64,000 nt of DNA. Source: Bacillota bacterium (GTDB taxonomy: Bacteria > Bacillota > Clostridia > Christensenellales > UBA3700). Below the pieces are notes generated by a model that saw only the letters and a program-made list of their open reading frames with translations, was not told the origin of the DNA and did not search any database. Made by a program: the position numbers and the translations under genes. Shown here piece by piece: positions 4,558 to 46,052 of the stretch (position 1 is its first letter; each line of letters starts with the position of its first letter). Location: the NCBI GenBank assembly GCA_023396095.1, contig JAEWXG010000027.1, forward strand, positions 14,121 to 78,120, read 5' to 3'.

Positions 4558-4577
4558 AATACTGCTCCTTTAAAATT

Positions 4578-4616
4578 AAAATGCTCTTTCTTGCACGAAC
4601 AGAGCATTTTATTTTC
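4578..4616. terminator. Hairpin terminator (bidirectional appearance) after the 88-aa gene
   Basis: 10-bp perfect stem AAAATGCTCT / AGAGCATTTT with a 13-nt loop and flanking A/T runs. Confidence 0.45.
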
Positions 4617-4724
4617 AACAGACTTACTTTTAGCATAATATTAAATTTGCAAAAGTATATCCAACTCAAATTATAACACAAGTTATATTATGAATAATCG
4701 CTTTTCAAATTAAAATTACTAATC

Positions 4725-4991
4725 CTATTCTTCTGGTTCAGTCTTATATTTATTAAAGATCTCCATATATTTTTCATAATCTTTACCTAACACACCTTTA
4801 TTTTTATCAATAGTGTGTTTAACATTGATTTCTCTAATGGTACCATCTTCTTTTTTGTTTAACCAAACTTCAAATCTTTTGTTAAAGATCGCTCTATACA
4901 TTGGATTTAAAAGTTTTAACATTTCGTCAAACATTATTTTGCTATTTCCTGTCCAATTAAACTCTTCTAATTTTTTCCTTTTTTCTGCCAT
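4725..4991 (-). CDS. Hypothetical small protein (88 aa), last gene of the flavoenzyme cluster
   Basis: Its ORF starts 3 nt after the stop of the Etf fusion gene. No family recognised. Confidence 0.5.
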   Translation of the reverse strand: MAEKRKKLEEFNWTGNSKIMFDEMLKLLNPMYRAIFNKRFEVWLNKKEDGTIREINVKHTIDKNKGVLGKDYEKYMEIFNKYKTEPEE

Positions 4992-4994
4992 AAT

Positions 4995-6716: not shown

Positions 6717-6720
6717 TTAT

Positions 6721-8151
6721 CTATTTTTTTAATAAAGAGTCAGGATTCAAAATCCAATTAGGATCTAATGCTTCTTTTATTTTTTTCAACATAATATACG
6801 CATTTCCTAATTCTTCTTTTAAGTAAGGCGTTCTATGTTTACCAACTCCATGATGGTGTGCTATAGAACCATTATATTTTAACGTATTTTCCATAACAAT
6901 ATCCCAAATTCTTCTATGTATTTTTTCAATTTCATCTAATGTTGCATCTTGTGGTGGCATTGCTGCAAATTGGAAATATACATTTGTTCCATTTAAATAA
7001 CTATGAGATGAATGTCCAGATGCAAACATCATATATTCACTAATTTTTTCATCATAATATATTTGATCTAATGTTTCTTCATATATTTTATAAATATCTG
7101 ACCACTTTGCTGAAATTTCAATTGTATCAACTAAAATACCCTGTTTAGCATATTCTTCATACTCAAGCGCTGCGTCATTTCTATGCTCATACCAAACATC
7201 AACAGGTTTTGACCCTGCAGAAATTGCCCCATTTTCTTTAGCAATTCTGCTTATTATTTTCCATTCCATTTCTGTTAACTCTTTTGTCCCATCTGCTCTA
7301 AAAATTAAAAGACACTCTCCCTCTTCCATAAATGATCCATATGGTTTCGCACATTCCATCCAATCGTGTAATCTTATAACAGATGGTGAAATTCCTTCTC
7401 TCATTATTAATCTTATTATATTAAATCCTTGGTCCATTGAAGTTACTCTAAATGCTTCTTTATATGATGATTGAGGCATTGGGAATACTTTAACTGTCAC
7501 TTCAGTAACAACTCCTAGTGCTCCTTCACCACCCAAGAAAATATGTCTCAAGTCTGGCCCAGCAGCTTTACGAGGATTAGATCTGAAAGATACTTCAGTA
7601 CCATCAACTAATACACCTTCAAGACCTAAAAGAAGGTTTTCCATACCACCATATCCAGTAGAAAATTGCCCTATTGATCTTGTCGATACCAATCCTCCCA
7701 TTTGAGCTAAATCCATTGATTGCGGATAATGTCCCAAAACATACCCCTTAGAATTAACAAATTTCTCAAGATCTTTAATGTAAACACCAGCCCCACATGT
7801 AATTGTCAAATCTGTATCATTAACATCATTTACATAATTTATGCCTGACATATCTAAAACAACTACATTTGGATCTGTTGTTTCTGCTCCAGCCAAAACT
7901 CCGGACCCGCCTCCGTATGGAATTATTGCAATTTTATTTTTATTACAAAACGCTAAAATTTGTGAAACTTCTTGTTTGTCTACTACCTTAACAACAACCA
8001 AAGGTAAAATAGGTTTCCATCCAAATTCTCTTTGATATAAACGTAATGCATACAAATCCACTGCTTTTTGTGCTCTTGTTGATTCATCTAAGAAAACTCT
8101 CTCTTCTTTTACAATCTTTTTTAATCCATCAATAATTTCTGTATTTTTCAT
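6721..8151 (-). CDS. FAD-linked oxidase of the VAO/PCMH family, alkyl-DHAP-synthase-like subtype
   Basis: 476 aa with an FAD-binding region (IPYGGGSGVLAGA) and the C-terminal signature SIAHHHGVGKHR (6841..6870). This triple-His loop is typical of ADPS-type members rather than the GEHGIG of GlcD/LctD. Confidence 0.8.
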   Translation of the reverse strand: MKNTEIIDGLKKIVKEERVFLDESTRAQKAVDLYALRLYQREFGWKPILPLVVVKVVDKQEVSQILAFCNKNKIAIIPYGGGSGVLAGAETTDPNVVVLDMSGINYVNDVNDTDLTITCGAGVYIKDLEKFVNSKGYVLGHYPQSMDLAQMGGLVSTRSIGQFSTGYGGMENLLLGLEGVLVDGTEVSFRSNPRKAAGPDLRHIFLGGEGALGVVTEVTVKVFPMPQSSYKEAFRVTSMDQGFNIIRLIMREGISPSVIRLHDWMECAKPYGSFMEEGECLLIFRADGTKELTEMEWKIISRIAKENGAISAGSKPVDVWYEHRNDAALEYEEYAKQGILVDTIEISAKWSDIYKIYEETLDQIYYDEKISEYMMFASGHSSHSYLNGTNVYFQFAAMPPQDATLDEIEKIHRRIWDIVMENTLKYNGSIAHHHGVGKHRTPYLKEELGNAYIMLKKIKEALDPNWILNPDSLLKK

Positions 8152-8162
8152 AATCTCCTCTC

Positions 8163-8513
8163 TTATCCCATTGTCTTTGATGCAATCATATTTACACCAG
8201 TATTTAATATATTTTCTATTATTATGTCCCCTTGTTTAATCGGAGTTTTTACGCATTTTGTTTTTAAGATTTCAATTGCATCTAACAACAACTTTTTTGA
8301 AATAGTTGATGTTGAGATGACAGGCAATAATTGCCCTAAATCAGTTAAAATCGTCGTAGTCAACATTCTTTTAGGATCAATCATCTCTTGAATCCCAAAC
8401 ACTTCACCCTTTTGACAAGAATTCCCATTAACAATAACTTGTTTATCATCTTTTGTTACCGTTAACGAGCACCCTATTGGGCAAGCAATACAAATCAAAT
8501 TTTTTGTTTCCAT
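8163..8513 (-). CDS. DUF1667 domain protein (MOX-like small subunit of GlpA-type complexes)
   Basis: 116 aa with the Cys motif CIACPIGCSLTV...NSCQKG. Conserved partner of the two upstream flavoproteins. Confidence 0.8.
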   Translation of the reverse strand: METKNLICIACPIGCSLTVTKDDKQVIVNGNSCQKGEVFGIQEMIDPKRMLTTTILTDLGQLLPVISTSTISKKLLLDAIEILKTKCVKTPIKQGDIIIENILNTGVNMIASKTMG

Positions 8514-8514
8514 G

Positions 8515-9771
8515 TTACCCCCTTAAGTTTACCTCAATATCATCATTAATATTTAAAATTGTCTCACCTTCAACGATAACTCTAACCATCTCTTGTGGTC
8601 TCACTACATTGAATTTCTTTTTTAAAATTTCTTTTCCACCTGATATTAACGTTACATTTGCATTTTTTATTTCTTTAGCGGGGCGGAAATATATTTCCAT
8701 CTTTTCTTTATCTATTTTAACAAACTTTTGAGGTAATAAAAATTTAACATTTTCACCTTGTATAATATTATATGATTTCATATTATTAAGTTTCCCGTCA
8801 AGATATAATTTTGCTCCCTTTGCTGCAATCTCCCCTGTTATAGAGACATAATCAACCAAATCAAATACTGAGGTAACATTCCCAGCTGCAAAAATTCCAT
8901 TGGTTTGCGTCATCATCAAATTATTTAGAATTGGTCCTTTAGTTTCTTTGCATATCGACACTCCAGCTTTTACTGACAATTCATTTTCTGGAATAAGCCC
9001 CACTGATAAAACTAAAAGATCACAAGGTATATACCTTTCAGTTCCTTCTATTAAATTCCTATTCTCATCAACCTGCTGAATTGTAACACCTTCAATTTTT
9101 GTATTGCCATAAATATTTGTGACAGTTGTTGATAAATATAGCGGAATATCATAATCATTTAAACATTGATGAATATTACGTTGTAAACCACCAGGACGAC
9201 TCATAACTTCATATACGCCCTCAACTTCTACCCCTTCTAAAACCATACGCCTTGCCATGATAAGACCAATATCGCCGGAGCCTAAAATAACGGCCTTCTT
9301 CCCAGGTAAATATCCCTCAATATTAATATACCTTTGAACGGCACCAGCTGTTAAAATCCCTTGTGGTCTTGTTCCATATATAAATACTTGATTCCTTGTT
9401 CTCTCTCTACATCCCATTGCAAAAATAATACTTCTTGCCTTCAATTCAAACACACCATCTTTTGAATTAATTGCCACTATTTTTTTATCCTGGGAAACAT
9501 CAATAACCATAGTATTTAATTTAACTTCGACATCTGTTTTCATTAATTCATCGATGAATTTTTGAGCATAAGTTGGTCCTGATAATTGTTCTTTAAATCT
9601 ATGCAATCCAAACCCATCATGAATACACTGCTTTAATATACCGCCAAGCTCATTGTCTCTTTCCAAGATAATAATTTTTTCAATCCCTAATTTCTTTGCT
9701 TCAAGTGCAGCTGCAAGCCCCGCTGGTCCAGCGCCAATTATTGCAAGATCAACAAGTTTTTCTTTATTCAT
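8515..9771 (-). CDS. NAD(P)/FAD-dependent (pyridine nucleotide-disulfide type) oxidoreductase, NOX-like subunit
   Basis: Start placed at ATG 9771, which has an AGGAGG RBS and overlaps the upstream stop. Dinucleotide motifs DLAIIGAGPAGLAAA and AVILGSGDIGLIMA. Confidence 0.85.
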   Translation of the reverse strand: MNKEKLVDLAIIGAGPAGLAAALEAKKLGIEKIIILERDNELGGILKQCIHDGFGLHRFKEQLSGPTYAQKFIDELMKTDVEVKLNTMVIDVSQDKKIVAINSKDGVFELKARSIIFAMGCRERTRNQVFIYGTRPQGILTAGAVQRYINIEGYLPGKKAVILGSGDIGLIMARRMVLEGVEVEGVYEVMSRPGGLQRNIHQCLNDYDIPLYLSTTVTNIYGNTKIEGVTIQQVDENRNLIEGTERYIPCDLLVLSVGLIPENELSVKAGVSICKETKGPILNNLMMTQTNGIFAAGNVTSVFDLVDYVSITGEIAAKGAKLYLDGKLNNMKSYNIIQGENVKFLLPQKFVKIDKEKMEIYFRPAKEIKNANVTLISGGKEILKKKFNVVRPQEMVRVIVEGETILNINDDIEVNLRG

Positions 9772-11503
9772 GTTTTTCTCCTCCTTGTCTAGTCTTTGCA
9801 ATCAAAACGCGATCTTTTCCTTTTTGACTAATTTCAAGAGGTGATACATTAAGTTCACGCGCCATAATTTCAATAATTCTAGGTCCGCAAAATCCTCCCT
9901 GACATCTACCTGCAGTAACTCTAATTCTTCTTTTTAATCCTTCAATAGTTGTACAAGGTATAGACCTATGCATTGCAGCAACAATTTCACCTTCAGTGAT
10001 TGTTTCACACCTACAAACAACATTTCCATATCGTGGATCACCTTTAATTAATCTATCTTTTTCCTCATTCGATAACTCATTAAATATAATCGGCTTCTTT
10101 CTATACGGATTAAAATTTGGATTTTCTTGATATGAGATTCCATCCCTTTTAAAACTTTTTTCAACAAGTTCTTTGACATATTCGGCAATTGCAGGAGCCG
10201 ACGCAATTCCTGGCGACTGTATTCCTGCACAATGAATAAATCCTTTAACCTTTTTTGATTCTTCAATAACAAAATCTTCATTATATGTTGCAGCTCTCAA
10301 TCCAGCAAAATATGCTATTACGTCGCCTCTAGCAGTATTCTGATACGATTGATGCCCGACTCTATACGCATAATCAAAATCTTCTGGATGAACTGATAAA
10401 TCATCTCTAGACTCTACTTCCCTCGCAGATGGTCCAAATAAAGCATTACCAGCAACAGTTTTTTCAGCGCATCCTCCTTTTGAATGTTTATTTTTTCCTT
10501 TTACAACACCCAACGAACCATAACATATAGGATCAACAGGTACATTTTTATCTAAAATTGCAATAACTCCCTTTCTTGGATGAATAGTATAAAATCTGTC
10601 ATCTGCATATTCTGCTATGTAATCTGCATATAAACCAGCAGCGTTTATAATTAATTTAGTTTGTATAACTCCATTATTTGTAACAACCGCCTTCACTCTT
10701 TCATCTTTATCAATCCCTATCACTTCATGATTTAATAAAAACTTAACACCATTATCTGCAGCATTTTCAGCAGCAGCAATACAAACTTCAAATGGATCAA
10801 CATAACCACTTGTTCTTGTCAAAACTGCAATCTTAGCACCATCTGGACAACTTGGAATATGTTTTTTTATTGACTTTCCTATGTACAATTTATGATCTGG
10901 AACCTTGTTAACCTTACAAGCAAGCCAAGCTAAAAATATGTTTAATAAACTTCCACCTTTTTCATAATATGCAACACTACCTGGCCTCACAAACTTAAAT
11001 CCTAATTCTTCTGCAAATTGAGTGTATAAGAAATTTCCTCTTAAATTCATTTTAACCTTTACAGTATTAGGATATACTCCGTTCCCTGGATGAATCATTC
11101 CATTATTTGCTTTTGAAGTACCACAAGATACATCAGCCTCTTTTTCAACAAGAATAATTTTTAAATTAAGTTTAGAGAGCTCTCGCGCAATTGAGGAACC
11201 GATTATTCCACCACCAATGATAACAACATCTGCAATATCTATAATCCCCTTACTTCTTGCTTGTTCAATTGCTTTAGTATCTTTAACTAATGGCTTATTT
11301 AGGCTTTTACCATTTACAGTAATATCATTCACTAAATTTTTAAGTTTATACTTTTTTACAACTTTGAGACCTAATTCTACAACATCTTCCCAGTTTGACA
11401 AAGTTCCAGTTAAATAACCTATTTCATCTTTGATTTCAAGATTAATAGATGAAATATTAATTCCCATTTCCTTCCCTATTTTCAATAATTTCCCTTTGTC
11501 CAT
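9764..11503 (-). CDS. FAD-dependent oxidoreductase, GlpA/glycerol-3-phosphate dehydrogenase-like, with BFD-like [2Fe-2S] C-terminus and a BON-like N-terminal extension
   Basis: Start placed at ATG 11503 (RBS GAGGGG). The track start at 11608 has no RBS. Contains GxGxxG (VVIIGGGIIGSSIA) and a C-terminal CRCETITEGEI...AGRCQGGFCGP. About 100 aa lie before the FAD motif. Confidence 0.8.
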   Translation of the reverse strand: MDKGKLLKIGKEMGINISSINLEIKDEIGYLTGTLSNWEDVVELGLKVVKKYKLKNLVNDITVNGKSLNKPLVKDTKAIEQARSKGIIDIADVVIIGGGIIGSSIARELSKLNLKIILVEKEADVSCGTSKANNGMIHPGNGVYPNTVKVKMNLRGNFLYTQFAEELGFKFVRPGSVAYYEKGGSLLNIFLAWLACKVNKVPDHKLYIGKSIKKHIPSCPDGAKIAVLTRTSGYVDPFEVCIAAAENAADNGVKFLLNHEVIGIDKDERVKAVVTNNGVIQTKLIINAAGLYADYIAEYADDRFYTIHPRKGVIAILDKNVPVDPICYGSLGVVKGKNKHSKGGCAEKTVAGNALFGPSAREVESRDDLSVHPEDFDYAYRVGHQSYQNTARGDVIAYFAGLRAATYNEDFVIEESKKVKGFIHCAGIQSPGIASAPAIAEYVKELVEKSFKRDGISYQENPNFNPYRKKPIIFNELSNEEKDRLIKGDPRYGNVVCRCETITEGEIVAAMHRSIPCTTIEGLKRRIRVTAGRCQGGFCGPRIIEIMARELNVSPLEISQKGKDRVLIAKTRQGGEKHE

Positions 11504-30046: not shown

Positions 30047-31405
30047 TTAATAAGCACTTTCTATCGCATTAATGAACAAAGCTAATTCAAATCTTTTTTT
30101 CATCATTGCACACGTAATATCATATGGAATATTTATATTTCCTTTATAAATTTGATTGTTGGCCGCACACCCACCAGAACAATAATATTTTGCAAAACAA
30201 TTTGTACAATCCAATTTATTAACCACAACATTTTTAGAAAACTGTTTTGATACTGCTATATTAAATGACCCTTCATAAACATTTCCTATCTTGCTTTCTT
30301 TTATGTTAGTAAATTGATGGCAAGGATAAATATCCCCATTTGTTGCGACAGAAATATATTCGCACCCTGCCCCACACCCTGTCATTCTTTTATGCATGCA
30401 AGGTCCATGATTCAAATCAACATAGAAATGAAAAAAGTTATACCAAGTTTCAGGTTGCTTACGACTTTCAAGATATTCATAAGCTAATTTTTCATACTCT
30501 TTTTCTATTCTCGGTATATCTTCTTTTGTTATTTCAAGATCTTTAATATCAGTTACTACAGGTTCTAAGGAAATTTGTTTAAATCCATTTAATGCTAAAA
30601 ATTTTACATCCTCTGCAAAATCAAGGTTGTTTTTTGTAAATGTCCCTCTAACATAATATGACTTTTCTCCTCGTACGCTAGCAAATTTCATAGCATTCTT
30701 TAATACTGTTGCATGGGAATCTTTATAGTTTGCTGTTTTTCTCATATTATTATGCACTGTTTGTCTGCCATCAATCGATAAAACTACATTATGCATTTCC
30801 TTGTTTAAGTAATTTATTACATCATCCGTTAGAGCTAAGCAATTTGTTGTTAATGTGAAATAAAATGTTTTGTTGAATTCTTTTTCTTTTACTCTTGCAT
30901 AATCAACAATACCCTTTACAACATTAAAATTCATTAATGGCTCACCACCAAAAAAATCAACCTCCAAATTTCTTCGATTCCCAGATTTTTCTATTAAATA
31001 ATCAATTGCTTTTTTACCAGTTTCTAAAGACATAATAGAGCGATCACTATTATGATATTTCCCATCGTCAGCAAAGCAATATTTGCATCTCATATTACAG
31101 TCTTGACAAATCAAAAGGCACATAGCTTTTAATTCTCCAAAATTTTTATGATCTCTAATTATTGGAGGAGGCGCATTTATTAATTGTTGTATTTCTAAAT
31201 CATTAAATTCATTTTCAATATCATTTTTTTGCGATGCAGGTATTTTAAAAAAGTCTTTTTGTTCTTCCTGAGTAAGTGTATTTGTATACTTTTTCTTTGC
31301 CACAAGAAAAGCGGCAGCATCAACATTCAATAAACTGCCACTCTCTATATCCCAAATAAAATGATATGTTCGCCCTTTATATGGATATTTAAAAAAATGA
31401 AGCAT
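30047..31405 (-). CDS. scfB: SCIFF radical SAM/SPASM maturase (thioether cross-link forming)
   Basis: 452 aa with the radical SAM motif CNMRCKYCFA and a C-terminal SPASM Cys cluster (CTNCFAKYYCSGGCAANN). Lies immediately downstream of a SCIFF precursor. Confidence 0.9.
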   Translation of the reverse strand: MLHFFKYPYKGRTYHFIWDIESGSLLNVDAAAFLVAKKKYTNTLTQEEQKDFFKIPASQKNDIENEFNDLEIQQLINAPPPIIRDHKNFGELKAMCLLICQDCNMRCKYCFADDGKYHNSDRSIMSLETGKKAIDYLIEKSGNRRNLEVDFFGGEPLMNFNVVKGIVDYARVKEKEFNKTFYFTLTTNCLALTDDVINYLNKEMHNVVLSIDGRQTVHNNMRKTANYKDSHATVLKNAMKFASVRGEKSYYVRGTFTKNNLDFAEDVKFLALNGFKQISLEPVVTDIKDLEITKEDIPRIEKEYEKLAYEYLESRKQPETWYNFFHFYVDLNHGPCMHKRMTGCGAGCEYISVATNGDIYPCHQFTNIKESKIGNVYEGSFNIAVSKQFSKNVVVNKLDCTNCFAKYYCSGGCAANNQIYKGNINIPYDITCAMMKKRFELALFINAIESAY

Positions 31406-31578
31406 TAAATTAAAGGCTTTTTCTCAGGATTATTAATTTTTATATCCTCTTGTTGGCAAGATTGATTCCCTACAGTGCAACTTGTTTTGCAAGCTGATTG
31501 ACAACTAGATTGGCATTCTCCGCATCCCTTTCCATTCTTTCTAATACTATTTTTTGATATAACGTTAATATGTTTCAT
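31405..31578 (-). CDS. scfA: Six-cysteine ranthipeptide precursor SCIFF (57 aa)
   Basis: Below the 60-aa cut-off, so absent from the ORF track. GGAGG RBS then ATG at 31578. Translation: MKHINVISKNSIRKNGKGCGECQSSCQSACKTSCTVGNQSCQQEDIKINNPEKKPLI. Its stop overlaps the scfB ATG (TAATG). Confidence 0.88.
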   Translation of the reverse strand: MKHINVISKNSIRKNGKGCGECQSSCQSACKTSCTVGNQSCQQEDIKINNPEKKPLI

Positions 31579-35854: not shown

Positions 35855-36916
35855 ATGATGAAAAACAAAAGAGAAAATAGAGGCCTATTAATTGCTGCAA
35901 TATCGTTAATTGTAAATTTGGGATTAGCAATAACAAAATTGCTTATTTCAACTTATACAAGAAGTATTATGATTTTAGGCGATAGTTATAACAACTTTGG
36001 CGATGCTATATCTAACGTAGGTCACTTATATAGTTTTAAAAAATCTTCGTCAAAACCAACAAAACGCCACCCTTTCGGATACGGGAAAGTTGAATATATT
36101 TTTACAATTTTAACAGCTTTTTTAGTTGTCCTAATCGGAATATTTTTTATACGTGATGCCTCGGAAAGATTTTTTATCCCTATATCCATTACTTACAGAC
36201 AACGTTGGTTTTATATTCTTTTAGTGACCGCAATTATAAAATTCGGTTTAGCATTTTTCTATCATTCGCAAAATTTAAAACTACTATCACCTGTTGTTAA
36301 AGCAATGACATATGACGCCATTCAAGATGGCTTCATTTCTTTAATTACTGCATTTTCTTATAAATGGTCATATCTTTCTTCATTCCCTCTAGATGCCATT
36401 TTAGCCATGGTTTTAGCAAGTTATATGATCATACAAGCTATAATATTAATTGCAGAAATGATTAGGCATGTAATAGGTGATAATGCAACATCGACATTAT
36501 CATATGTTTATAAAAATTTAACTTGTTACACAAATATAAAGTACTTTAATGACATTAAAATTCATCAGTACTCTAAAGATATAACTTATGTAACAGCAAC
36601 CATTTTTATAGATAAAGAAAAAAGCACTGATTCAATTTATAACGAAATTAATCAATTAAAGAAATTTTTTAAAATAGAAAAAAATATTAATTTTTATGCA
36701 AATACAGTATTTGATAATTCAAATATTAACACTTTAGATGTGCAAAATATCCAACAAATTCTTGCCTTAAACAATCTTTTTTATGATGTAAAAATTGAAA
36801 ATGAAATTGTAATCATTGAGGCCGAAATCAATGACATCGATAAAAAGAAAGATCCTGAAGAACTTTTAAAAGAAAACAATACTCATATTAATTTTGAAGT
36901 TCGATATTACAAATGA
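35855..36916 (+). CDS. Cation diffusion facilitator (CDF) family metal efflux transporter
   Basis: 353 aa with N-terminal TM helices and CDF-like strings (SYNNFGDAISN, HPFGYGKVEYI). The only plus-strand protein gene. No obvious SD before the ATG. Confidence 0.75.
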   Translation: MMKNKRENRGLLIAAISLIVNLGLAITKLLISTYTRSIMILGDSYNNFGDAISNVGHLYSFKKSSSKPTKRHPFGYGKVEYIFTILTAFLVVLIGIFFIRDASERFFIPISITYRQRWFYILLVTAIIKFGLAFFYHSQNLKLLSPVVKAMTYDAIQDGFISLITAFSYKWSYLSSFPLDAILAMVLASYMIIQAIILIAEMIRHVIGDNATSTLSYVYKNLTCYTNIKYFNDIKIHQYSKDITYVTATIFIDKEKSTDSIYNEINQLKKFFKIEKNINFYANTVFDNSNINTLDVQNIQQILALNNLFYDVKIENEIVIIEAEINDIDKKKDPEELLKENNTHINFEVRYYK

Positions 36917-36927
36917 AATCTGCATAA

Positions 36928-36955
36928 TAAAAAGTTAGGAATCCTAACTTTTTAT
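36928..36955. terminator. Bidirectional terminator between the convergent CDF and helicase genes
   Basis: AAAAAGTTAGG, atc, CCTAACTTTTT: a perfect 11-bp stem with A/T runs on both sides. Confidence 0.7.
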
Positions 36956-36967
36956 TGCAAAATTTAG

Positions 36968-39900
36968 CTACTCTTCTTTTTTCTCAATTATTAAATTATT
37001 GCTAGGCTTTAACTTATTTTGGCTTTGCGCCCAATAATACACATAATCTAATCTCTCATTTGTTTTTAATAATTGTTGATTATTGTTAGTTTTTAATTGT
37101 TTTAATGTTTCTTTAAACAAAACTGCTTTATCAAAACTTCCGTCGCTATCTTGCATAGCAAGAACTTCTCTCATTACCTCTAATATTTCTTCCTTAGCTA
37201 TATCGAATAAATTTCTATCTCCACCAATTCTAAAGTAATTCATTTCCTTTAACGAATTTTCTGGCCAGTAAAAGTATTGATTTTGGTCATTAGTTGTTCT
37301 TAATATAAAATTCTTTAAGGTATCATTGATTGCCTGTTTTGCTTTTTGACTCATTTGTTTTATATTTGATCTTTCTTTAATTTTTTCAACAACTTTATCA
37401 TATGATATTGGTCCTTCTACATTAAATAAATTATTCAAATACGATATTATTTCAGATGAAAATCCTTTTTCGCTATTATACATAATCCTATCATATGTAT
37501 TGTAATCTTGATATTTTATCTTGTTGTACTCAAATTTAATTTTAGCCCCTTTTTTAATTCTAGGGTTAATAATTACTTCTTCTTTTTCAAATGGTTTTGA
37601 TAATGCCTTTATGATTTTTTCGATCGTACGTTTTTTATCTTTATAATACTCAAGAGTATATATATTGATTACTTTCCAATCTAAAGTATTTAAAACATTA
37701 TCTTGAACATATAATTTATCTCTATTTGTTATATTTTGTTCTTTAAAGTTTTTATCAAGAATAATACCTAGTGCATAACTTGTTTGTTTATCATTTAAGA
37801 TCGCTAAATCAACTTTAAAATTGCTTTTTCCGACATTTGCGTGCACTACATATCCTTTTTTCTCTAAATCATTTTTAATATGTTTTACAATAATTTTATT
37901 TGTTTCTTCACCTGCATAATTGTTTTCATAACTACTATCTTCCGCATATTGGATAAAATGTTTAAGTGTTAATTGACCTTTGTTTTTAATAAAATTATCA
38001 CTCATAAAATCAATGCTTCTTAAAGTAGAAATTACAATCATTTTCTCCTTACTTCTACTAACCGCAACATTTAATCTTCTCTGTCCATTTTCTCTAACAA
38101 TAGGCCCATTAACAATTGCCATTCCAGCAGCATTCTTTGTAAAACCAATCGATAAAATAATAATATCTCTTTCATCTCCTTGAACACTTTCTAAAGACTT
38201 AACAAACCAAGGCTCTTGAGTTTTTAATTCTGCTGCGATTATATCCTCGTGCAATTTTTTGTCACGGCTTAACATATTCATTATTGCTTCATAAACTGCT
38301 TCCTTCTGTGTTACATTAAACACAATAATCCCCACAGATTTATCCTTTGTTCTCTTATTTTGATAAATTGATTTAAATGTCTGTAATATTTCATCAATTT
38401 CTTCTTCTGATATAGCAGAATTTTTCTTTCTTTCCTTTATATCCACATATTTAAACTCTACGCGGTTTGTCGATATATCTTTTGATGGGAATGTATATAA
38501 TTGTTTGTTATAAAAATTCTCATTAGAAAATTGAATTAATGATTCATGTCTACTTCTATAGTGATATGACAATTTAATTCTTGGCATATCAATACTTAAG
38601 CACTCATCTAAAAGTGATGTTGCATCATCATATTGAATATCTTCATCCTCGACCTCAAGCCCTGCTGTAAAATACGCAGAAGGTGGCATTTGCTCCGGAT
38701 CTCCTGCGACTATTAATGACTTCCCTCTTGCAATAGCTCCGATAGCTTCATACGTAGGAATTTGTGACGCCTCATCAAAAATTACAATATCAAACTTTGA
38801 AACGTGATTTTTATTTGCCGTATCTACAGATAAGTATTGCGCAGCGCTCATTGGGGACATCAAGAAGCAAGGGAAATATTTTTTAATTAAACCATCATAG
38901 TCTATTAATGTTTCTCTAATTGTTACTCCTCTCCCACCATTAGAAATTGATTTCTTTAATCTCCCTATTGGCGAAGTTACAGCGTAATCTTTATCGTTAT
39001 GATTTAATGATGCACTTAATTTTGCAGAGACCATTTCAATAACTAAATTATTGTACTCATTTATCAAATCTTTATATTTCCTTATCTCAAGCTCAAATGA
39101 TGAAGGATTAAAATAATTAATATCTGAATCTTTAAAATATAATTTTAAATATCCTAATGCACATGAATATTCAAAAATTTCTTTAAAATATCTATAGTTG
39201 AATTCATTTCTTGCTATAGCGTTTAAAAATTGATCTAACCCGATCTCTTCCATATCGTCACGTTGCCTATTTAAGTTAACAATATCAACCAATTGTGAAA
39301 AATTATCTGGATTTGAAATATATGTTACAAATTCAAGTTGCTTTCCAATTTCATCATCGAGCCCTTTATATATTGAATAGTCAAAACAATACTTTTCCTC
39401 TAACTTCTTACTTTCTTGGTTGTATTGCTTAAATTTTCCTTCAAATACTGAAAAAACTGTTTTTAAAGATTTGCTTTTTTGTTCATAAATATCAATAAAC
39501 ATAGTCAAAATCTTCATAAAGTTTGACCCGTTCGATAACGCTTTAACATTGCTTATGAAACTTCTTGTTGCATAATATGACTCCATTATTTGATGCAAGT
39601 TATCGATCTCATTAATAAAGGCATCACCTAAAATATTATTTAATTCTCCAGATAGTTTGATCATTTCTTCTGTCAAAGCTTTGTATTTTTCAATATCTTC
39701 AAAATACATCCTCATATTTTTATAATCATACTTTGCCCCTCTGATTGATACCCTCTTTAAAGCTTTTTTGCATTTCCTTCTAGCCTTAAATTTATTTGAA
39801 AAACCTTCTGCTTTTTCATACTCATCCAGCAAAGCAAACTCTGCAAACGAGGTAATTTTACCAAAATTAAATTTATTTTTATATTTAACTCTTAAATCAT

Positions 39901-42781
39901 ATAACTTTTGTGCTTGATTAAATAATTCAATGTTATTATCTGTCGTATCTTCCGAAATAAAATTAGATAAGGTTGATATATATAAATTTCGATTAAAGCA
40001 AATATCTAAAATTGATAATATTTGCATAATATTCGAATTTGTATAAGCAAAACTAATTGGTAAAATACTCATTAAATCATTACTAATACTCAAAATATCA
40101 TTAAGTTTTGCTTTAAGTTTTACGAACTCTTCTACAACTTCATCTTTATCTGTAACATTAAGTTCTTTTAACTTTACAATCTTTAATGGATTATGTGCAT
40201 AATCAACTATATTGTTAGTAGATGCAATATATGTATCTATTAATTCGTATATCCTTTTTTCTTTTTCCTCGTCTAATGATTTTAAATAATCAGCTGATAA
40301 TTTAATAAAGAACTTATAATTTTTTAAATTTTCGTGCTTATCAATTGATTCATTTAATGAATAGAGATATTTGTGCGTGTGCATTTTGTCTAAAATACTT
40401 GCTATACTATTTCTTTTTGCAACTATTTCTTGACACTTTGCTTCAAAGGTTCTTGGAGTCCTAACAGCACCAAGATCCATTGATTCGCCAAGTCTTGCAA
40501 AAAAATCAGTTTTATTAGCTTTGTTAGAGTGTAACTCCAAGCAAAATCTCCCCAACATTATTTTATTTAATCTGTCTGCAACGACATCCAATGCTGCCTT
40601 TTTTTCCGCAACAAAAAGTACTGTTTTCCCATGATAGAATGCGTTAACAATCATGTTAACTATAGTTTGGGACTTCCCTGTTCCTGGCGGTCCGTCAAGA
40701 ATGAATGATTTACCTTTTGCGCATTCCATTATTGCTTTTAACTGTGTTGAGTCGTATGAAATAGGAGCTGCAAAATTGGCATATTTTTCTTCATCTTCAA
40801 TATTTTTCTTATTATCAATCACATCATCTAAAACATTTTTATTTTCAAGAATTGATTGAACTATTTTATTTTTCTTTAACTGTGCTTTATGATCTCTTAA
40901 ATCTCTCCACATTATATAATGTGAAAAAGTTAAATTGGCGATAAACGCAACTTTTTCATCTAGTTGAATATCTTCCGTATTGTTTTCTTTAAATAACTTA
41001 ACGAAATCAATATATTTAAACTCCGGTCCCAAATGATAAAGTTTTTCAAAATCAAAATCAGGATTATCTAATTTGTAGTATTCAAAAAAGGTTTGATTTA
41101 TCATTAAATCGTCATAATCATAATTTATTGTAAAATATTGCCCAACTTTATCTTTTGATATCTTAATTGGTAAAACCATAAATGGAGCCGTTCCTCTTTC
41201 CTTCTTCCTTGTCTTTTTGTAATTTAAAAGTCCAAGACAAAGATATAAAGTCGGAGCACCTGTCTCCTCCATTGCAGAATTTGATTTTTTTATCAAAGTT
41301 CTTAATGTTTTATCTAACCCTAAAACAAATAATTCATTATTCTTTAATTTAACACCTGTTATATCTGTAGTCTTAATATTATATTTGGCAAAATCTTTTT
41401 CTAAAAGTAAATTAGCTCCCTTGTCTAGTTGATCATAACTACTCAATAATTTAATGCTACTTCTAAACTCTATATCTTCATCCACTCTATGATTACTAAT
41501 AACACGAACACAATTAGACAATTTTAAATCAAAGCAAACAAGCGGATTCCTTTCCGATAAATCTAATAACTTCTTTTCCCAGAACATAAATCTATCTCTT
41601 TCTGTTTCATCCACTATGTCAACATATTTAGTTTTTAAAACAGAATTAAGCTTTTCATTTTGTTTTTCTGTTTCTTCAATCTCTCGTGATAATACAAAGC
41701 TATCCGCCTCTTTAGTAATAGCCGCAAAAACTCCTGCTTTTAAGCTGTTAATATCTAAGGCTGCAAACGATGAATCTCCAAGATAGGATGACATTTTTAC
41801 ATATGGAATCGAAATGGATTCTTCAAACGATATTCTCGAATCTTTTCCAATACCACTGCAATCAATAAATACTATTTTAGATAGTGGGTCACTAGCAAAG
41901 TTATATACAACACCTATCTTGCTTTCAACACCATTAGTAAATGTTTGTTCGTCATCAGTAAAAAATCCTGCAAAAAATTCATTTTCTACCATCATTAAAA
42001 CTGAATGGTATCCTATCTCTTCTAGGCAAGCACAAAAAAGCAGCGTTAAATCCATTTGAGTTGCCTTTCTGTCTCTTAATACCTCATCAGGCATTCTTAT
42101 TTTTTGATATTGACCTATAACTTTCTTTTGCTTGTTGTATTCTTTAAAATAACCACCATTACTCTCAAATGAAATATCATAATCCCTTAAAGACTTGAAA
42201 ATTGCTTCTGCTTCTTTAAGCATTTTCTCTTTAATTTTACCCGTTTTAATTTTATAAGTTTGAAAAGACTTATTTGATAAATATTGTAAAGAAGTTTTTA
42301 ACACATCTTCTGCGTTTTGTTTCTTTATGCCAACTAATTTTGCAAATAAACGTGGATCCTCTTTTATTTCAGATGAAATTTGATTTATTGGCAAAACCCT
42401 AAATTTATATTCTTGTGAATATAAAATTTCTTTTTCTTTATTTTTTACTAATACTGTTAAAATACAATTTTCACTTTCTAATAAATTCTTAAGTAAATCT
42501 ACATCAACTTTTAAAAATGGTACTCTAAGCGATACTAATTCTCCAGATCCAATATTATTGAGCAACAATTTAGACATAGAGAAAATGTCATTATTAAACT
42601 CAAAATCAATTGTTAAATCCCTATAGTTATCTTCTGTTGTATTACTTATTAGGATTGATTGTACTAATGAATAGTATGTTGAAAATGTATCATCCTTCAA
42701 TTTCATTAAACTATCTGCATGATACTCAATATATGAAAACTCTTTCTTGCCCTTTATTACTAATTTAAATTTTTTGTCCAT
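36968..42781 (-). CDS. Giant DUF4011 / SF1 (Upf1-like) helicase / Vsr-DUF559-like nuclease fold / DUF3320 protein (Hhe-like)
   Basis: 1,937 aa. Motifs in order: FWEKKLLDLSERNPLV (about aa 395), Walker A LDGPPGTGKSQT (about aa 695), VIFDEASQ (about aa 1330), SVQGDERDIIILS and RRLNVAVSRSK, VGKSNFKVDLAI...LDWKVINIYTLEYY (about aa 1640-1720), and a DUF3320-like tail. RBS GGGGG before the ATG. Confidence 0.85.
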   Translation of the reverse strand: MDKKFKLVIKGKKEFSYIEYHADSLMKLKDDTFSTYYSLVQSILISNTTEDNYRDLTIDFEFNNDIFSMSKLLLNNIGSGELVSLRVPFLKVDVDLLKNLLESENCILTVLVKNKEKEILYSQEYKFRVLPINQISSEIKEDPRLFAKLVGIKKQNAEDVLKTSLQYLSNKSFQTYKIKTGKIKEKMLKEAEAIFKSLRDYDISFESNGGYFKEYNKQKKVIGQYQKIRMPDEVLRDRKATQMDLTLLFCACLEEIGYHSVLMMVENEFFAGFFTDDEQTFTNGVESKIGVVYNFASDPLSKIVFIDCSGIGKDSRISFEESISIPYVKMSSYLGDSSFAALDINSLKAGVFAAITKEADSFVLSREIEETEKQNEKLNSVLKTKYVDIVDETERDRFMFWEKKLLDLSERNPLVCFDLKLSNCVRVISNHRVDEDIEFRSSIKLLSSYDQLDKGANLLLEKDFAKYNIKTTDITGVKLKNNELFVLGLDKTLRTLIKKSNSAMEETGAPTLYLCLGLLNYKKTRKKERGTAPFMVLPIKISKDKVGQYFTINYDYDDLMINQTFFEYYKLDNPDFDFEKLYHLGPEFKYIDFVKLFKENNTEDIQLDEKVAFIANLTFSHYIMWRDLRDHKAQLKKNKIVQSILENKNVLDDVIDNKKNIEDEEKYANFAAPISYDSTQLKAIMECAKGKSFILDGPPGTGKSQTIVNMIVNAFYHGKTVLFVAEKKAALDVVADRLNKIMLGRFCLELHSNKANKTDFFARLGESMDLGAVRTPRTFEAKCQEIVAKRNSIASILDKMHTHKYLYSLNESIDKHENLKNYKFFIKLSADYLKSLDEEKEKRIYELIDTYIASTNNIVDYAHNPLKIVKLKELNVTDKDEVVEEFVKLKAKLNDILSISNDLMSILPISFAYTNSNIMQILSILDICFNRNLYISTLSNFISEDTTDNNIELFNQAQKLYDLRVKYKNKFNFGKITSFAEFALLDEYEKAEGFSNKFKARRKCKKALKRVSIRGAKYDYKNMRMYFEDIEKYKALTEEMIKLSGELNNILGDAFINEIDNLHQIMESYYATRSFISNVKALSNGSNFMKILTMFIDIYEQKSKSLKTVFSVFEGKFKQYNQESKKLEEKYCFDYSIYKGLDDEIGKQLEFVTYISNPDNFSQLVDIVNLNRQRDDMEEIGLDQFLNAIARNEFNYRYFKEIFEYSCALGYLKLYFKDSDINYFNPSSFELEIRKYKDLINEYNNLVIEMVSAKLSASLNHNDKDYAVTSPIGRLKKSISNGGRGVTIRETLIDYDGLIKKYFPCFLMSPMSAAQYLSVDTANKNHVSKFDIVIFDEASQIPTYEAIGAIARGKSLIVAGDPEQMPPSAYFTAGLEVEDEDIQYDDATSLLDECLSIDMPRIKLSYHYRSRHESLIQFSNENFYNKQLYTFPSKDISTNRVEFKYVDIKERKKNSAISEEEIDEILQTFKSIYQNKRTKDKSVGIIVFNVTQKEAVYEAIMNMLSRDKKLHEDIIAAELKTQEPWFVKSLESVQGDERDIIILSIGFTKNAAGMAIVNGPIVRENGQRRLNVAVSRSKEKMIVISTLRSIDFMSDNFIKNKGQLTLKHFIQYAEDSSYENNYAGEETNKIIVKHIKNDLEKKGYVVHANVGKSNFKVDLAILNDKQTSYALGIILDKNFKEQNITNRDKLYVQDNVLNTLDWKVINIYTLEYYKDKKRTIEKIIKALSKPFEKEEVIINPRIKKGAKIKFEYNKIKYQDYNTYDRIMYNSEKGFSSEIISYLNNLFNVEGPISYDKVVEKIKERSNIKQMSQKAKQAINDTLKNFILRTTNDQNQYFYWPENSLKEMNYFRIGGDRNLFDIAKEEILEVMREVLAMQDSDGSFDKAVLFKETLKQLKTNNNQQLLKTNERLDYVYYWAQSQNKLKPSNNLIIEKKEE

Positions 42782-42915
42782 CTTGCCCCCAATAATAAAG
42801 TTACATTAATAATATTAACATACACAAATCTAAAATTAAACAAAGTATGACAAGAAGTATATATTTATTAATTATAAGAACAACAAAAAGAACAAAGAAA
42901 AATAGATTTTTATCC

Positions 42916-42944
42916 TTGCCATGTAAAAATTGATTTGTTATAAT
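42916..42944 (+). promoter_or_regulatory. Promoter of the tRNA Val-Cys-Leu operon
   Basis: TTGCCA, a 17-nt spacer, then TATAAT, ending 17 nt before the first tRNA. Confidence 0.65.
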
Positions 42945-42960
42945 ATTTTCGTTGTGCTTT

Positions 42961-43036
42961 GGGAGTTTAGCTCAGCTGGGAGAGCATCTGCCTTACAAGC
43001 AGGGGGTCATAGGTTCGAGCCCTATAACTCCCACCA
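42961..43036 (+). tRNA. tRNA-Val (anticodon UAC)
   Basis: Cloverleaf folded by hand: acceptor GGGAGTT/AACTCCC, anticodon loop CTTACAA, T-arm ATAGG-TTCGAGC-CCTAT, encoded CCA. Confidence 0.9.
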
Positions 43037-43051
43037 ATTCACAACAAATAT

Positions 43052-43125
43052 GGCACCATAGCCAAGCGGTAAGGCACGGCTCTGCAAAAGCTTGATCCCC
43101 AGTTCAAATCTGGGTGGTGCCTCCA
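43052..43125 (+). tRNA. tRNA-Cys (anticodon GCA)
   Basis: Acceptor GGCACCA/TGGTGCC, anticodon loop CTGCAAA, T-arm CCCAG-TTCAAAT-CTGGG, short D-arm, encoded CCA. One mismatch at the base of the anticodon stem. Confidence 0.8.
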
Positions 43126-43131
43126 TTTTAT

Positions 43132-43220
43132 GCCGGAGTGGCGAAATAGGCAGACGCACAGGACTTAAAATCCTGGGACTCTAACAGGTCGTATCGGTTC
43201 AAGTCCGATCTTCGGCACCA
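43132..43220 (+). tRNA. tRNA-Leu (anticodon UAA), class II with a long variable arm
   Basis: 89 nt. Anticodon stem-loop CAGGA-CTTAAAA-TCCTG, long variable arm, T-arm with GGTTCAAGTCC, encoded CCA. Confidence 0.9.
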
Positions 43221-43227
43221 ATAAAAC

Positions 43228-43277
43228 AAATTGCACAAAATAGACTAAAAACGCTATAAATTGTGCAATTTTTTTAT
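43228..43277 (+). terminator. Terminator of the tRNA operon
   Basis: AAATTGCACAA, loop of about 22 nt, TTGTGCAATTT, followed by a T run. Confidence 0.55.
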
Positions 43278-43865
43278 ATTTTAAATCACCGTGACCATTG
43301 GGAGGGAGATTGTCGAGTCCAGCTTCTTACAAAAGTTTTGGTGTCTCCTTAAGAACCATAAACGCATCTCTTCTTTGTGCACCGCCTCTCTTTTTTCTTC
43401 TGAATACATCTTTGACACCCCCCTCAAACGAAATCTCTAAAGAGTTTTGATATCACTGCCGTTTTGATTTAAATTATCATTAAGAGAGCCAGTCAGACTC
43501 CTTCCTTAAGATTGCATCATATGGGATTGCTGATAGCTCCCTTTTTTATACTCAAAATCTATTTTCTTAACTTTTACTATATCGTAAAGTTCTAATTCAC
43601 CTCTACTAGTTTTACCTGCAATTACATCCGCATTATATTTTCATCAAGAACATCTAAATTCACATTGCCTCTTGCAATTTATATAAAGTTATTATTTCTT
43701 TTATGCGCAAAATCATCATAAACATAATTATTAGATGCCTTTAGCAACTCATCTACATTATCAACTAAACAAATTTTATCATGCAATCTAAACGATTATA
43801 TTCCTTGATATACTAGCATATTAAGTAAATTTTTCAGCCTTTACATAAGATGAGACAAAATATTT
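43278..43865 (-). pseudogene. Degenerate gene remnants; no intact ORF of 60 aa or more; includes a GC-rich patch
   Basis: The minus strand holds only broken reading frames (SFRLHDKICLVDNVDELLKASNNYVYDDFAHKRNNNFI*, IARGNVNLDVLDENI..., NADVIAGKTSRGELELYDIVKVKKIDFEYKKGSYQQ...). There is also a 42-codon ORF (43281..43409) behind a GAGGGGGG RBS. Positions 43285..43520 are visibly GC-richer than the flanks. Confidence 0.35.
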
Positions 43866-45161
43866 TTATAAATCTATGATTGATTCATTGAGCAAAAAGT
43901 CCTCTACTCCAATGTATAAAATACCATCATTATCATGTTTAGGAATAATGTGCTTTCTCACAATCACAATCTTTTTAAATGAATCATCTATTTTCTTAAG
44001 TGATACCGTTTCTTGCTCTCTTTTCTCTATACTGTCTAAATTTAAAGCTGACTGAATATAGTACCTTTGATGTCCTTTGTTTATAACAAAATCAACTTCA
44101 AGCTGGATCTTTTTTCTATTTCCATCTTTCTTAAAATCATGTTCAACAACACCTACATCTATATTGTATCCTCTACGAAGCAATTCGTTATAGATGATGT
44201 TTTCCATAATATGCGTGTCTTCTACTTGCCTAAAATTTAATCTTGCATTTCTAAGTCCTATATCCGCAAAATAATATTTAAGTGGCGTTGAGAAATACCT
44301 TGATCCCTTAACATCATATCTATTAGCATGGTATATAATGTATGCCTCCTCAAAGAAACTAAGATATTTGGAAATTGTATTAGAAGATATTTTTATCTGC
44401 TTCTCTGACAAAAATCTTCTTGCAAGTTTAGTCGGATTAGTTAGTGAGCCAACGGTGGAAGATATGAAGTCAAGCAGTAATTCGATTATTTCCTTCTCAT
44501 TTTGTATGTTGTTTCTTTCAAGAATATCCCTTATATATGTTTCTTGAAATAAGTCCTTCAAATATTGATTTTTTTCCTCATCAGTTTTTAAACTATAAAT
44601 ATATGGCATACCTCCATATACGGTATAATGCTCAAAAGCTACCTCTTTGTTTTCATGCAAATTGTAAACCTCTGCAAATGATAGAGGGTTTACATGTATC
44701 TCATCGCCACGATCTCTAAACTGCGTTAACACATCAAATGAAAGCATTTTGGAATTACTCCCTGTCACATAAATATCTAAATTGCTACATTTCATAAGTC
44801 CTAGTAACGCATCAACAAAGGTTACACTCTTTTTTTTGCCGTCAATATAAGGATTGCTTACAGATTCAGATAGTTGAATTTCATCAATAAAAATGTAATA
44901 TGTCTGGTTTCTATCTTTAGTTTTTTCTTTGATGTACTCATTCAATCTAAACGGATTTCTATATTCAAGATTATCTATTTCGTCTAGCGCAATCGAAATA
45001 ATTTGGCTTTCTTTGACACCTTCTGACAATAGGTACTTTTTGTACAAATTAAATAACAGATATGATTTCCCGCACCTTCTTATCCCCGTAATAATCTTTA
45101 TCCTACCATTTTTTCTTTTATCTATAAGTTTCTTTAAATAATAATCTCGTTCAATTTTCAT
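43866..45161 (-). CDS. AAA+ ATPase with a DUF4143 C-terminal domain (orphan)
   Basis: 431 aa with Walker A GIRRCGKSYLL and Walker B YIFIDEIQ, the typical AAA_14 plus DUF4143 architecture. GAGGT RBS. Confidence 0.85.
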   Translation of the reverse strand: MKIERDYYLKKLIDKRKNGRIKIITGIRRCGKSYLLFNLYKKYLLSEGVKESQIISIALDEIDNLEYRNPFRLNEYIKEKTKDRNQTYYIFIDEIQLSESVSNPYIDGKKKSVTFVDALLGLMKCSNLDIYVTGSNSKMLSFDVLTQFRDRGDEIHVNPLSFAEVYNLHENKEVAFEHYTVYGGMPYIYSLKTDEEKNQYLKDLFQETYIRDILERNNIQNEKEIIELLLDFISSTVGSLTNPTKLARRFLSEKQIKISSNTISKYLSFFEEAYIIYHANRYDVKGSRYFSTPLKYYFADIGLRNARLNFRQVEDTHIMENIIYNELLRRGYNIDVGVVEHDFKKDGNRKKIQLEVDFVINKGHQRYYIQSALNLDSIEKREQETVSLKKIDDSFKKIVIVRKHIIPKHDNDGILYIGVEDFLLNESIIDL

Positions 45162-45173
45162 ATAGTTACCTCA

Positions 45174-45215
45174 CAGAAAAATTTAGGTGGAATTCCGCCT
45201 TTTTATTTCAAGTTT
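45174..45215 (+). repeat. Terminator-like hairpin repeat, copy A
   Basis: AAAAATTTAGGTGGAATTCCGCCTTTTTATTTC: a 6-bp stem with one G-U pair, loop AATT and a T run. The 33-nt core is identical to copy B. Confidence 0.6.
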
Positions 45216-45247
45216 ATTTTATCATGAATCGGCAAACTGTTCAATGA

Positions 45248-45293
45248 CAGATAAAAAATTTAGGTGGAATTCCGCCTTTTTATTTCGAGTTTT
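45248..45293 (+). repeat. Terminator-like hairpin repeat, copy B
   Basis: Same 33-nt core, 77 bp to the right of copy A. Lies downstream of the his-operon lipoprotein gene on the minus strand. Confidence 0.6.
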
Positions 45294-45446
45294 GTAATTT
45301 CTTCACTAGGTAAAAATGAAGTTAGGATTTCGGTTTTGTTCTTAAACTTTATTTCAAAATATATGAAAGAATCTAACCACAATAAAAACTTAAAACCTAA
45401 TCAAATTAACTTTTGCGTCAAGTAATTTTCGATAGTATAGTTGGTT

Positions 45447-46052
45447 TTATTCAACAAATGTATTTTCTTCTATTTTCTCAATTTTTGCTTGTCCAATGTT
45501 TGAAATTGTAATTTCTATACTGTCAATTCGTTCTTCTGAAGTTTTATAAACAATATTTATCTTAATCGTTTTTTGAACCTCTTGCATTGTAAATGAATTT
45601 AAATTTTGAATATTTAATACTGTTTCAACTTTTTTGAAAACTTCTTTTCTTAAAAAATATGTCAATTCCTCAGCAACATAGTTATAGTTATTGATTTTAA
45701 AAATATTATTTTGCAATAAAAGTTCAACTATGTCATTAAAATATTCTTTTGGATTAACTGTTTTTTGTTCTAACATGTTCCCTTGATAAAACTTTGTATA
45801 ATTAGCAGAATCACCATTTACAACAAAATATTCCAAATATTGATCATTATAGAAGAGATATTCATTTTTAACTCTTGTGAATTTTTCTGGTTTGGGTAAT
45901 GACGAATAATATATGGACACGTCATAATTTTTATTTTTAACTTCTTCTAATAAATCAAACCGTTTTGTCGGCTGACAAGAATAGAATGATAATAAAACCA
46001 TTACTATTGCTACTAAAACTATAATTCTTTTAGTCAAGTTTAACTTTTTCAT
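45447..46052 (-). CDS. Hypothetical lipoprotein (last gene of the his transcription unit)
   Basis: 201 aa with a signal peptide and lipobox LLSFYSC. Overlaps the hisIE stop by 23 nt. Confidence 0.6.
   Translation of the reverse strand: MKKLNLTKRIIVLVAIVMVLLSFYSCQPTKRFDLLEEVKNKNYDVSIYYSSLPKPEKFTRVKNEYLFYNDQYLEYFVVNGDSANYTKFYQGNMLEQKTVNPKEYFNDIVELLLQNNIFKINNYNYVAEELTYFLRKEVFKKVETVLNIQNLNSFTMQEVQKTIKINIVYKTSEERIDSIEITISNIGQAKIEKIEENTFVE

Follow-up and report, generated by a model that had tools for sequence, protein, structure and literature searches.

A divergent ProA-family helicase with a catalytically degenerate N-terminal domain, a candidate defence protein in a Clostridia genome

In this study we focused on a single large gene, located at positions 36968-42781 of the (-) strand (stop codon included) in a 64,000-nucleotide stretch of contig JAEWXG010000027.1 from a Bacillota bacterium of the class Clostridia (GenBank assembly GCA_023396095.1). 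This whole stretch is referred to here as the window, and all positions are counted from its first letter. Profile searches and alignments place the protein of 1,937 amino acids (aa) encoded by this gene, in the broad sense, in the wider ProA family, whose members are listed as single-polypeptide anti-phage proteins and which is a sister of Hhe; within this family the protein is divergent. They also show that the active site of its N-terminal transglutaminase-like domain is dead, the Cys-His pair of the family having been lost. The family itself is already catalogued, under the names ProA and PDC-S37, and what is new here is a divergent member with a pseudo-enzyme as N-terminal domain. Taking the evidence as a whole, we consider it reasonably probable that the protein has retained a defence function and acts much as Hhe or ProA does.

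The gene consists of one unbroken frame in which the sole stop is the terminal one, and a GGGGG ribosome-binding site is found 7 nt 5' of its ATG. An earlier note on this DNA, made from the sequence alone, had described the 5.8-kb open reading frame (ORF) together with a series of motifs, and all of these are present at or near the places where they had been seen. They comprise a DUF4011-type signature, FWEKKLLDLSERNPLV, at aa 400-415; the Walker A region, LDGPPGTGKSQT, at aa 695-706, within which GPPGTGKS occupies aa 697-704 and includes Lys703; VIFDEASQ at aa 1333-1340 (DEAS at 1336-1339, with Asp1336 and Glu1337); SVQGDERD at aa 1532-1539 and RRLNVAVSRSK at aa 1568-1578; VGKSNFKVDLAI at aa 1650-1661 and YALGIILDKN at aa 1669-1678, both in the Vsr-like domain; and KATQMDLTLLFCACLEEIGYHSVLMMV at aa 239-265, the transglutaminase-like helix of the N-terminal module. 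The domains named in the same note, DUF4011, a superfamily 1 (SF1) helicase and a Vsr-like fold, are likewise supported by significant Pfam matches. DUF4011 (PF13195) was matched at aa 404-567 (41081-41572) with 70.1 bits against a cut-off of 22.2 (E 2.7e-19). The first part of RecA1, with the Walker A motif (aa 671-756, 40514-40771), was matched by AAA_11 (55.2 bits) and also by AAA_19, and AAA_12 was matched at aa 1389-1585 with 63.7 bits. The Vsr-like REase_MTES_1575 domain (PF18741) was matched at aa 1633-1727 (37601-37885) with 57.1 bits, above its gathering cut-off of 38.2. The C-terminal tail (aa 1741-1937, 36971-37561) had been called DUF3320-like, and here the picture is mixed: DUF3320 taken alone falls below significance in Pfam (E 0.019, 15.3 bits versus a cut-off of 25), but the tail is homologous to those of ProA and PDC-S37, as both profiles reach aa 1896-1904, and the sister-species fragment discussed below shows 74% identity to it. 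It can be described as a divergent DUF3320-like region.

The NCBIfam model 'anti-phage protein ProA' (NF058533, release 20.0) aligns with aa 36-1896 of the protein over profile positions 8-1899 of 1903, with a score of 1125.9 bits and an E-value of 0, and relatives from the protein's own clade (P0002 and P0008) have ProA scores of 1145-1188 bits. In PADLOC the best match is PDC-S37 (PDLC05009; E 6.5e-227), which covers aa 396-1904 and profile positions 8-1521 of 1550; this profile spans the region from DUF4011 to the tail, so that the N-terminal module lies outside its 1,550 positions. PDC-S37 is a computational candidate only, and no paper on it was found in a full-text literature search. Identity to twelve full-length metagenomic relatives is 41-49%. 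Two bona fide ProA proteins scoring above the model's cut-off, both taken from plasmid records, have their architecture and motifs in common with the protein studied here; one is from Klebsiella pneumoniae plasmid pM63-1 (WP_200995691.1, 2225 bits) and the other from Bacteroides finegoldii (WP_237924679.1, 2197 bits). The correspondence with ProA is collinear over the full length, from the beta-sandwich and transglutaminase-like module through DUF4011, an SF1B helicase with a helical insert of about 630 aa and the Vsr-like domain to the tail, and in both cases there is a stand-alone single gene. The differences are that Gln and Glu replace the transglutaminase-like Cys-His pair in our protein, that the nuclease Glu retained by the Klebsiella ProA (GVECDG) is lacking in it, as it is in the Bacteroides ProA, and that ProA genes lie on a plasmid or at a site flanked by insertion sequences (IS), whereas this gene is chromosomal and in a housekeeping context.

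Hhe, which is said to be the single-gene system of Gao et al. 2020, has the same combination of DUF4011, SF1 helicase, Vsr-like nuclease and DUF3320 in one polypeptide, and in both Walker A and motif II lie far apart. The earlier note had read the protein as a candidate Hhe-like variant, and as regards domain order and kinship to the DUF4011/Hhe defence proteins this reading stands; the closest catalogued proteins, however, are ProA and PDC-S37. The NCBIfam model of Hhe (NF042953) gives 515.8 bits, a quarter of its cut-off of 2000 (E 2.6e-154), with its best stretch at aa 1074-1729, and the PADLOC model (PDLC02194; E 1.5e-103) is far weaker than that of PDC-S37. Hhe-type relatives are also without the N-terminal module of about 390 aa and retain the Glu of the I-E-C-D-G motif, and their Walker A motif is situated near residue 300, compared with 697 in the 1,937-aa protein.

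The N-terminal module had been thought to be unexplained, but it is covered by the ProA profile and can be divided into two domains. An AlphaFold model built from a 13-sequence alignment of aa 1-395 (pLDDT 86.5, pTM 0.85) contains first a beta-sandwich of the Ig/RhoGDI-like type (aa ~1-135, 42377-42781), which Foldseek matches to the beta-sandwiches of RhoGDI, GbpA and HAP2 with a probability of 1.00, and then a transglutaminase/PNGase-like domain with a papain fold (aa ~136-355, 41717-42376), for which the matches are PNGase 2f4m_A (probability 0.99, TM 0.30/0.38) and 3esw_A. Among the 13 N-termini of the subfamily, Pfam DUF553 (PF04473) is matched by 12 and Transglut_core (PF01841) by 11, with best E-values of 6e-05 and 4.2e-05, respectively; the window's protein is the sole exception in that its N-terminus reaches no Pfam transglutaminase model. 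When a profile of the module was compared with 1.84 billion representative proteins, 5,680 clusters were found at E <= 1e-3 and 455 at E <= 1e-30, and most of the top 150 module-bearing clusters are 1,900-2,200 aa long and have the same architecture. The module is thus accounted for and is not rare. When PDB sequences were searched with a profile of the N-terminal alignment, the sole hit was a weak one to DRC7, and a Foldseek comparison of the N-terminal model with viral structures yielded no usable match. Some close relatives (P0003, P0004, P0007 and P0010) have an extra N-terminal extension of 70-110 aa before the beta-sandwich (for instance 'KYRIVLVTIG...YLCE...LVLVEG'), and this extension is not present in the window's protein.

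The loss of the Cys-His pair is a distinctive feature of the protein. In its relatives the nucleophile helix and the His strand read D-K-K-G-T-C-L-D ... G-H-A-F-A-G, and both this motif and the fold resemble those of the transglutaminase-like cysteine peptidases (PF01841/PF04473; PNGase 3esw and 2f4m), from which the 1,937-aa protein differs in having Q in place of the nucleophile and E in place of the base. Gln242 (CAA, 42056-42058) stands in place of the family Cys, as the earlier note had recognised, and Glu268 (GAA, 41978-41980) in place of the family His, while Asp307 and Asp343 are retained; the positions of the Cys-His-Asp triad thus read Gln242, Glu268 and Asp343. The Cys is found in 154 of 159 aligned homologues and the His also in 154 of 159. 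Because the CAA codon is three bases away from the Cys codons and GAA two bases away from the His codons, the substitutions are not a sequencing slip. It should be said that the use of the Cys-His pair as a criterion for ProA is our reading of the family alignment and not a published definition. Other degenerate copies (P0089, P0113, P0128, P0153 and P0169) come from different clusters, and those of full length retain the helicase motifs.

Divergence along the protein was expressed as the ratio of its identity to 12 relatives over the identity of those relatives to each other. This ratio is 0.90-0.96 in the beta-sandwich, DUF4011, both helicase parts, the insert and the nuclease-like domain, and 0.81 in the tail, compared with 0.68 in the transglutaminase-like domain and 0.53 in the linker that follows it. 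The faster divergence points to relaxed or changed constraint in the transglutaminase-like domain specifically. The copy in the window may be regarded as a natural double 'active-site mutant' under selection, of which there are a few independent counterparts among the relatives, and such copies could serve as controls for establishing which activities the family needs.

The helicase motifs, by comparison, are all intact: Walker A, DEAS, QGDERD and RRLNVAVSRSK are invariant across the relatives compared. By sequence the closest solved motors in the PDB are IGHMBP2 (SMUBP-2), Sen1 and Upf1/Nam7, all of SF1B, and there is also similarity to the IGHMBP2-family model TIGR00376 of NCBIfam; the matches to Sen1 include the remainder of RecA1, with DEAS, and RecA2, with QGDERD and RRLNVAVSRSK (aa 1301-1600, 37982-38881). 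The motor domains are alike by sequence to those of the Upf1-like SF1B helicases, but to these the 1,937-aa protein adds a RecA1 insert of about 540 aa without a counterpart in the PDB, as well as flanking sensor-like or effector-like domains. From Walker A (Lys703) to DEAS there are 636 aa, which confirms the very long insertion that had been reported, but this is no oddity, since in 157 relatives the two motifs are separated by 406 to 1,192 aa (median 631). When aa 672-1380 were modelled with AlphaFold (pLDDT 84.6), only helices were seen between model residues ~86 and ~630, and according to this model the all-helical insert (aa ~757-1300, 38882-40513) lies between the first three strands of RecA1 and the strand preceding motif II. 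Foldseek with the model of the insert found in the PDB only non-significant matches of the coiled-coil type (SMC, Rad50 and dynein; TM about 0.1). Much of the apparent novelty of the gene is removed by these comparisons, as both the module called unexplained and the insertion called very long are regular components of a large catalogued family.

The nuclease-like domain is of interest for a different reason. In an alignment of 47 relatives, the Hhe-type sequences read G-I-E-C-D-G-x-x-Y-H, whereas all 13 members of the window's clade read G-I-(L/I)-(I/V/L)-D-(S/T/K), with Ile1674 occupying the Glu position of I-E-C-D-G in our protein. Asp1658, Asp1676, Arg1687-Asp1688 and Trp1702 are retained in the clade. 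The I-L-D-K deviation to which the earlier note drew attention is therefore present, but it is not peculiar to this protein, being common to the 13 subfamily members and to most ProA-type proteins. As a single-gene system, Hhe confers activity against lambda, T3, T7 and PhiV-1, and the E1731A substitution in the Vsr domain of the E. coli protein abolishes defence (bioRxiv 10.1101/2022.06.16.496414). Judging from the coordinates of the PADLOC profile, in which aa 1674 falls at about position 1727, E1731 of Hhe is most likely the Glu of I-E-C-D-G and would correspond to Ile1674.

Among the relatives P0001-P0211, which were sampled by their similarity to the window's clade so that the counts are biased accordingly, 117 of 122 proteins with the transglutaminase module lack the nuclease Glu (mostly having Leu, Ile or Met instead), while 17 of 20 without the module retain it. 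Because the presence of the module goes together with the loss of the Glu, it could be suggested that the ProA-type proteins swapped effectors, the Cys-His domain rather than the Vsr fold being their effector, and that the gene in the window has lost this as well and is a 'motor-only' derivative. We put this forward as a speculation that is unlikely to hold. If it were true, such a derivative would either have been domesticated as a cellular helicase or serve in defence purely through translocation or sensing, and in any case the association gives a hint as to which of the domains serves as effector in ProA-type proteins. Specialist interest in the gene is limited to its loss of the Cys-His pair and to this inverse relation, seen across the family, between transglutaminase module and nuclease Glu.

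The distribution of the family is patchy, with members in Bacillota, Bacteroidota and Pseudomonadota, and relatives, which are spread over many phyla, were found on 501 plasmids but in one phage record only. The neighbours vary between homologous loci and include RmuC, IS3, an LlaJI restriction enzyme, a reverse transcriptase and AbiJ-NTD4 with IS elements, and in the homologous loci examined there was no conserved partner gene. Neighbours that differ in this way, as they did at every homologous locus examined, fit a stand-alone gene that moves, and the single-gene organisation that had been proposed is upheld. Annotated copies of ProA or Hhe were also sought in complete E. coli genomes by DNA searches with two loci, one from an 'E. 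coli' bin and one from Pluralibacter, but there was no match. Many methanogen loci (Methanobrevibacter, Methanobacterium and Methanosphaera; L032, L035-L036, L039, L048 and L059-L085 passim) contain relatives that match only aa ~489-1729, and since these are without the N-terminal module, the core helicase/nuclease family is widespread in gut archaea. In the Bacteroides finegoldii record (L088, NZ_OY725931.1, 'plasmid 29'), the bona fide ProA gene is arranged at 3092-10181 tail to tail with a gene of the reverse-transcriptase family; this record also carries rpsA and glutamine synthetase III and may be a chromosomal fragment, not a plasmid.

If the protein does function in defence, it would be expected to act alone, like Hhe. 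The ATP-driven helicase would load on foreign or aberrant nucleic acid arising during infection, and in the case of Hhe the triggers map to phage DNA-metabolism genes (bioRxiv 10.1101/2024.10.10.617714). DUF4011, the helical insert and the N-terminal domains could provide sensing or regulatory scaffolds, with the transglutaminase-like pseudo-enzyme having a binding or regulatory role and no catalysis. As this last domain would be unable to catalyse, damage to the invader would then have to be inflicted by the acidic residues still present in the Vsr-like domain (Asp1658 and Asp1676) or by the translocase itself.

Several observations weigh against a role in defence. The score of the protein falls short of the 1500-bit equivalog cut-off of the ProA model, and its identity to bona fide ProA is only about 24% over the full length. 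The publication behind the ProA name was not found in the full-text literature search. The two candidate effector sites, transglutaminase-like and Vsr-like, are both non-canonical, and the defence output is accordingly not obvious. The immediate flanks are of housekeeping character (his operon, cation efflux, YajC and SecDF), and within about 10 kb no integrase, transposase, IS element or att-like repeat was found. Finally, in a related species the gene keeps its place and shows a divergence like that of housekeeping genes. This relative is a single 2.8-kb contig from a sister species, found by searching with the neighbouring cation-efflux protein, and on it the order metallophosphoesterase - cation efflux - ProA-like C-terminus is the same as in the window. 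The amino acid identities (BLASTP) are 74%, 70% and 74%, respectively, and dN for the ProA-like part (the C-terminal 326 codons) is 0.18, against values of 0.15-0.23 in the neighbouring genes; synonymous sites are close to saturation. The ratio dN/dS in this C-terminal part is about 0.08, again with dS near saturation. These comparisons show that the gene has been kept in place under purifying selection since the split of the two species, although the comparison of synteny and presence covers a single related genome fragment, a sample too small to settle how variable the locus is.

The alternative that draws most on these observations is that the gene has been domesticated or repurposed, a descendant of the ProA type having been kept as a chromosomal helicase with a cellular role, for instance in DNA repair, replication-transcription conflicts or RNA surveillance, with only the motor still catalytically competent. 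The loss of the Cys-His pair and the absence of the Vsr Glu, set beside helicase motifs that are all invariant, agree with such a history, as do the shared gene order and neighbour-like divergence in the sister fragment and the housekeeping flanks free of mobile-element genes. There is also a precedent in the core DUF4011 gene that is present in every Pseudomonas aeruginosa isolate (PMC10250203), which, together with the syntenic retention seen here, raises the question of whether some members of the family are now housekeeping genes. The comparison, however, depends on one relative; the nuclease-like domain and tail are constrained to the degree seen in relatives whose Cys-His pair is intact (ratio 0.95); a second defence candidate, matching PDC-S01, lies 1.1 kb away; and degenerate Cys-His sites recur in several unrelated clusters of otherwise ordinary-looking ProA-type genes. 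On balance we regard domestication as a rather unlikely, if serious, explanation.

That the gene is a relic in decay, so that a defence gene is here turning into a pseudogene, seems to us very doubtful. The missing catalytic residues of the transglutaminase-like domain and the faster divergence of that domain, the linker and the tail could be taken as signs of decay, but against this stand the uninterrupted 5.8-kb frame, the invariance of the helicase motifs, strong purifying selection on the C-terminal third and an intact ribosome-binding site. It is more improbable still that the gene is, as the earlier note proposed, an Hhe system proper to which an N-terminal module has been added, for in spite of the shared core order and the significant profile matches, the Hhe score of 516 bits against 2000 comes mainly from aa 1074-1729 whereas ProA and PDC-S37 match far better and over the full length, and neither the position of Walker A nor Ile1674 agrees with the Hhe type.

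Turning to the surroundings of the gene, a cation-efflux gene on the (+) strand (35855-36916) is its convergent neighbour at a distance of 51 bp, and a cluster of tRNA-Val(TAC), tRNA-Cys(GCA) and tRNA-Leu(TAA) on the (+) strand (42961-43220; ARAGORN, Rfam) is divergent from it at 179 bp; both had been noticed previously. The tRNA cluster is considered as context and not as part of the system. In a consensus scan of the divergent intergenic region (42782-42960), the gene has a weak -35/-10 match and the tRNA cluster a strong promoter-like site, but these are pattern matches only and are not commoner than in shuffled sequence. The orphan ATPase that had been noted is real: it is an AAA_14/DUF4143 protein of 431 aa on the (-) strand (43866-45161; Pfam), located 1.1 kb from the ProA-like gene, and a PADLOC match to PDC-S01 (E 2.9e-104) spans its full length. 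It is possibly an independent defence candidate, and the two candidates, the ProA-like gene and the PDC-S01 ATPase, bracket the tRNA cluster.

Within 10 kb on this side are the his operon, a lipoprotein-like ORF of 201 aa, the ATPase and the tRNAs, and on the other side cation efflux, metallophosphoesterase, YajC, an amino-acid permease, SCIFF with its radical-SAM maturase, and SecDF. The decayed mobile DNA of the earlier note is not supported: no integrase or transposase ORF and no tRNA-derived repeat was found, and repeat, Rfam and blastn checks of 43221-43865 were negative, with no similarity to plasmid DNA; the same checks of the flanks were also negative. What had been called a typical defence-island context is accordingly weak, consisting of housekeeping flanks and one defence-candidate ATPase without mobile DNA. 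Insertion of the gene as an island at the tRNA cluster was also considered, but it is rejected on two grounds: the gene lies 5' of tRNA-Val, and no direct repeat derived from a tRNA is present.

A few minor features were observed in the same region. The 201-aa ORF (45447-46052, (-) strand), which lies between the his operon and the ATPase, has a lipoprotein-like signal (…VMVLLSFYSC) and has no match in Pfam, NCBIfam or PADLOC. Between this ORF and the ATPase, at 45177-45350, there are three direct copies of a 39-nt unit, AAAAATTTAGGTGGAATTCCGCCTTTTTATTTCAAGTTT, with identities of 100%, 97% and 67% and spacings of 77 and 58 nt, each of which includes a small GGAATTCC palindrome. In the 51-bp convergent gap (36917-36967) a palindrome, AAGTTAGGA/ATCCTAACTT, is found at about 36932-36950; a simple terminator scan made no call there, and the palindrome could be a shared bidirectional terminator. 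The SCIFF peptide gene and its radical-SAM maturase, a pair that is a typical marker of Clostridia and agrees with a Clostridia-type metagenome-assembled genome of low GC content (about 30%; contig LEMO22-1_SAMN17279155 scaffold_78), are situated further away on the (-) strand, at 30047-31578.

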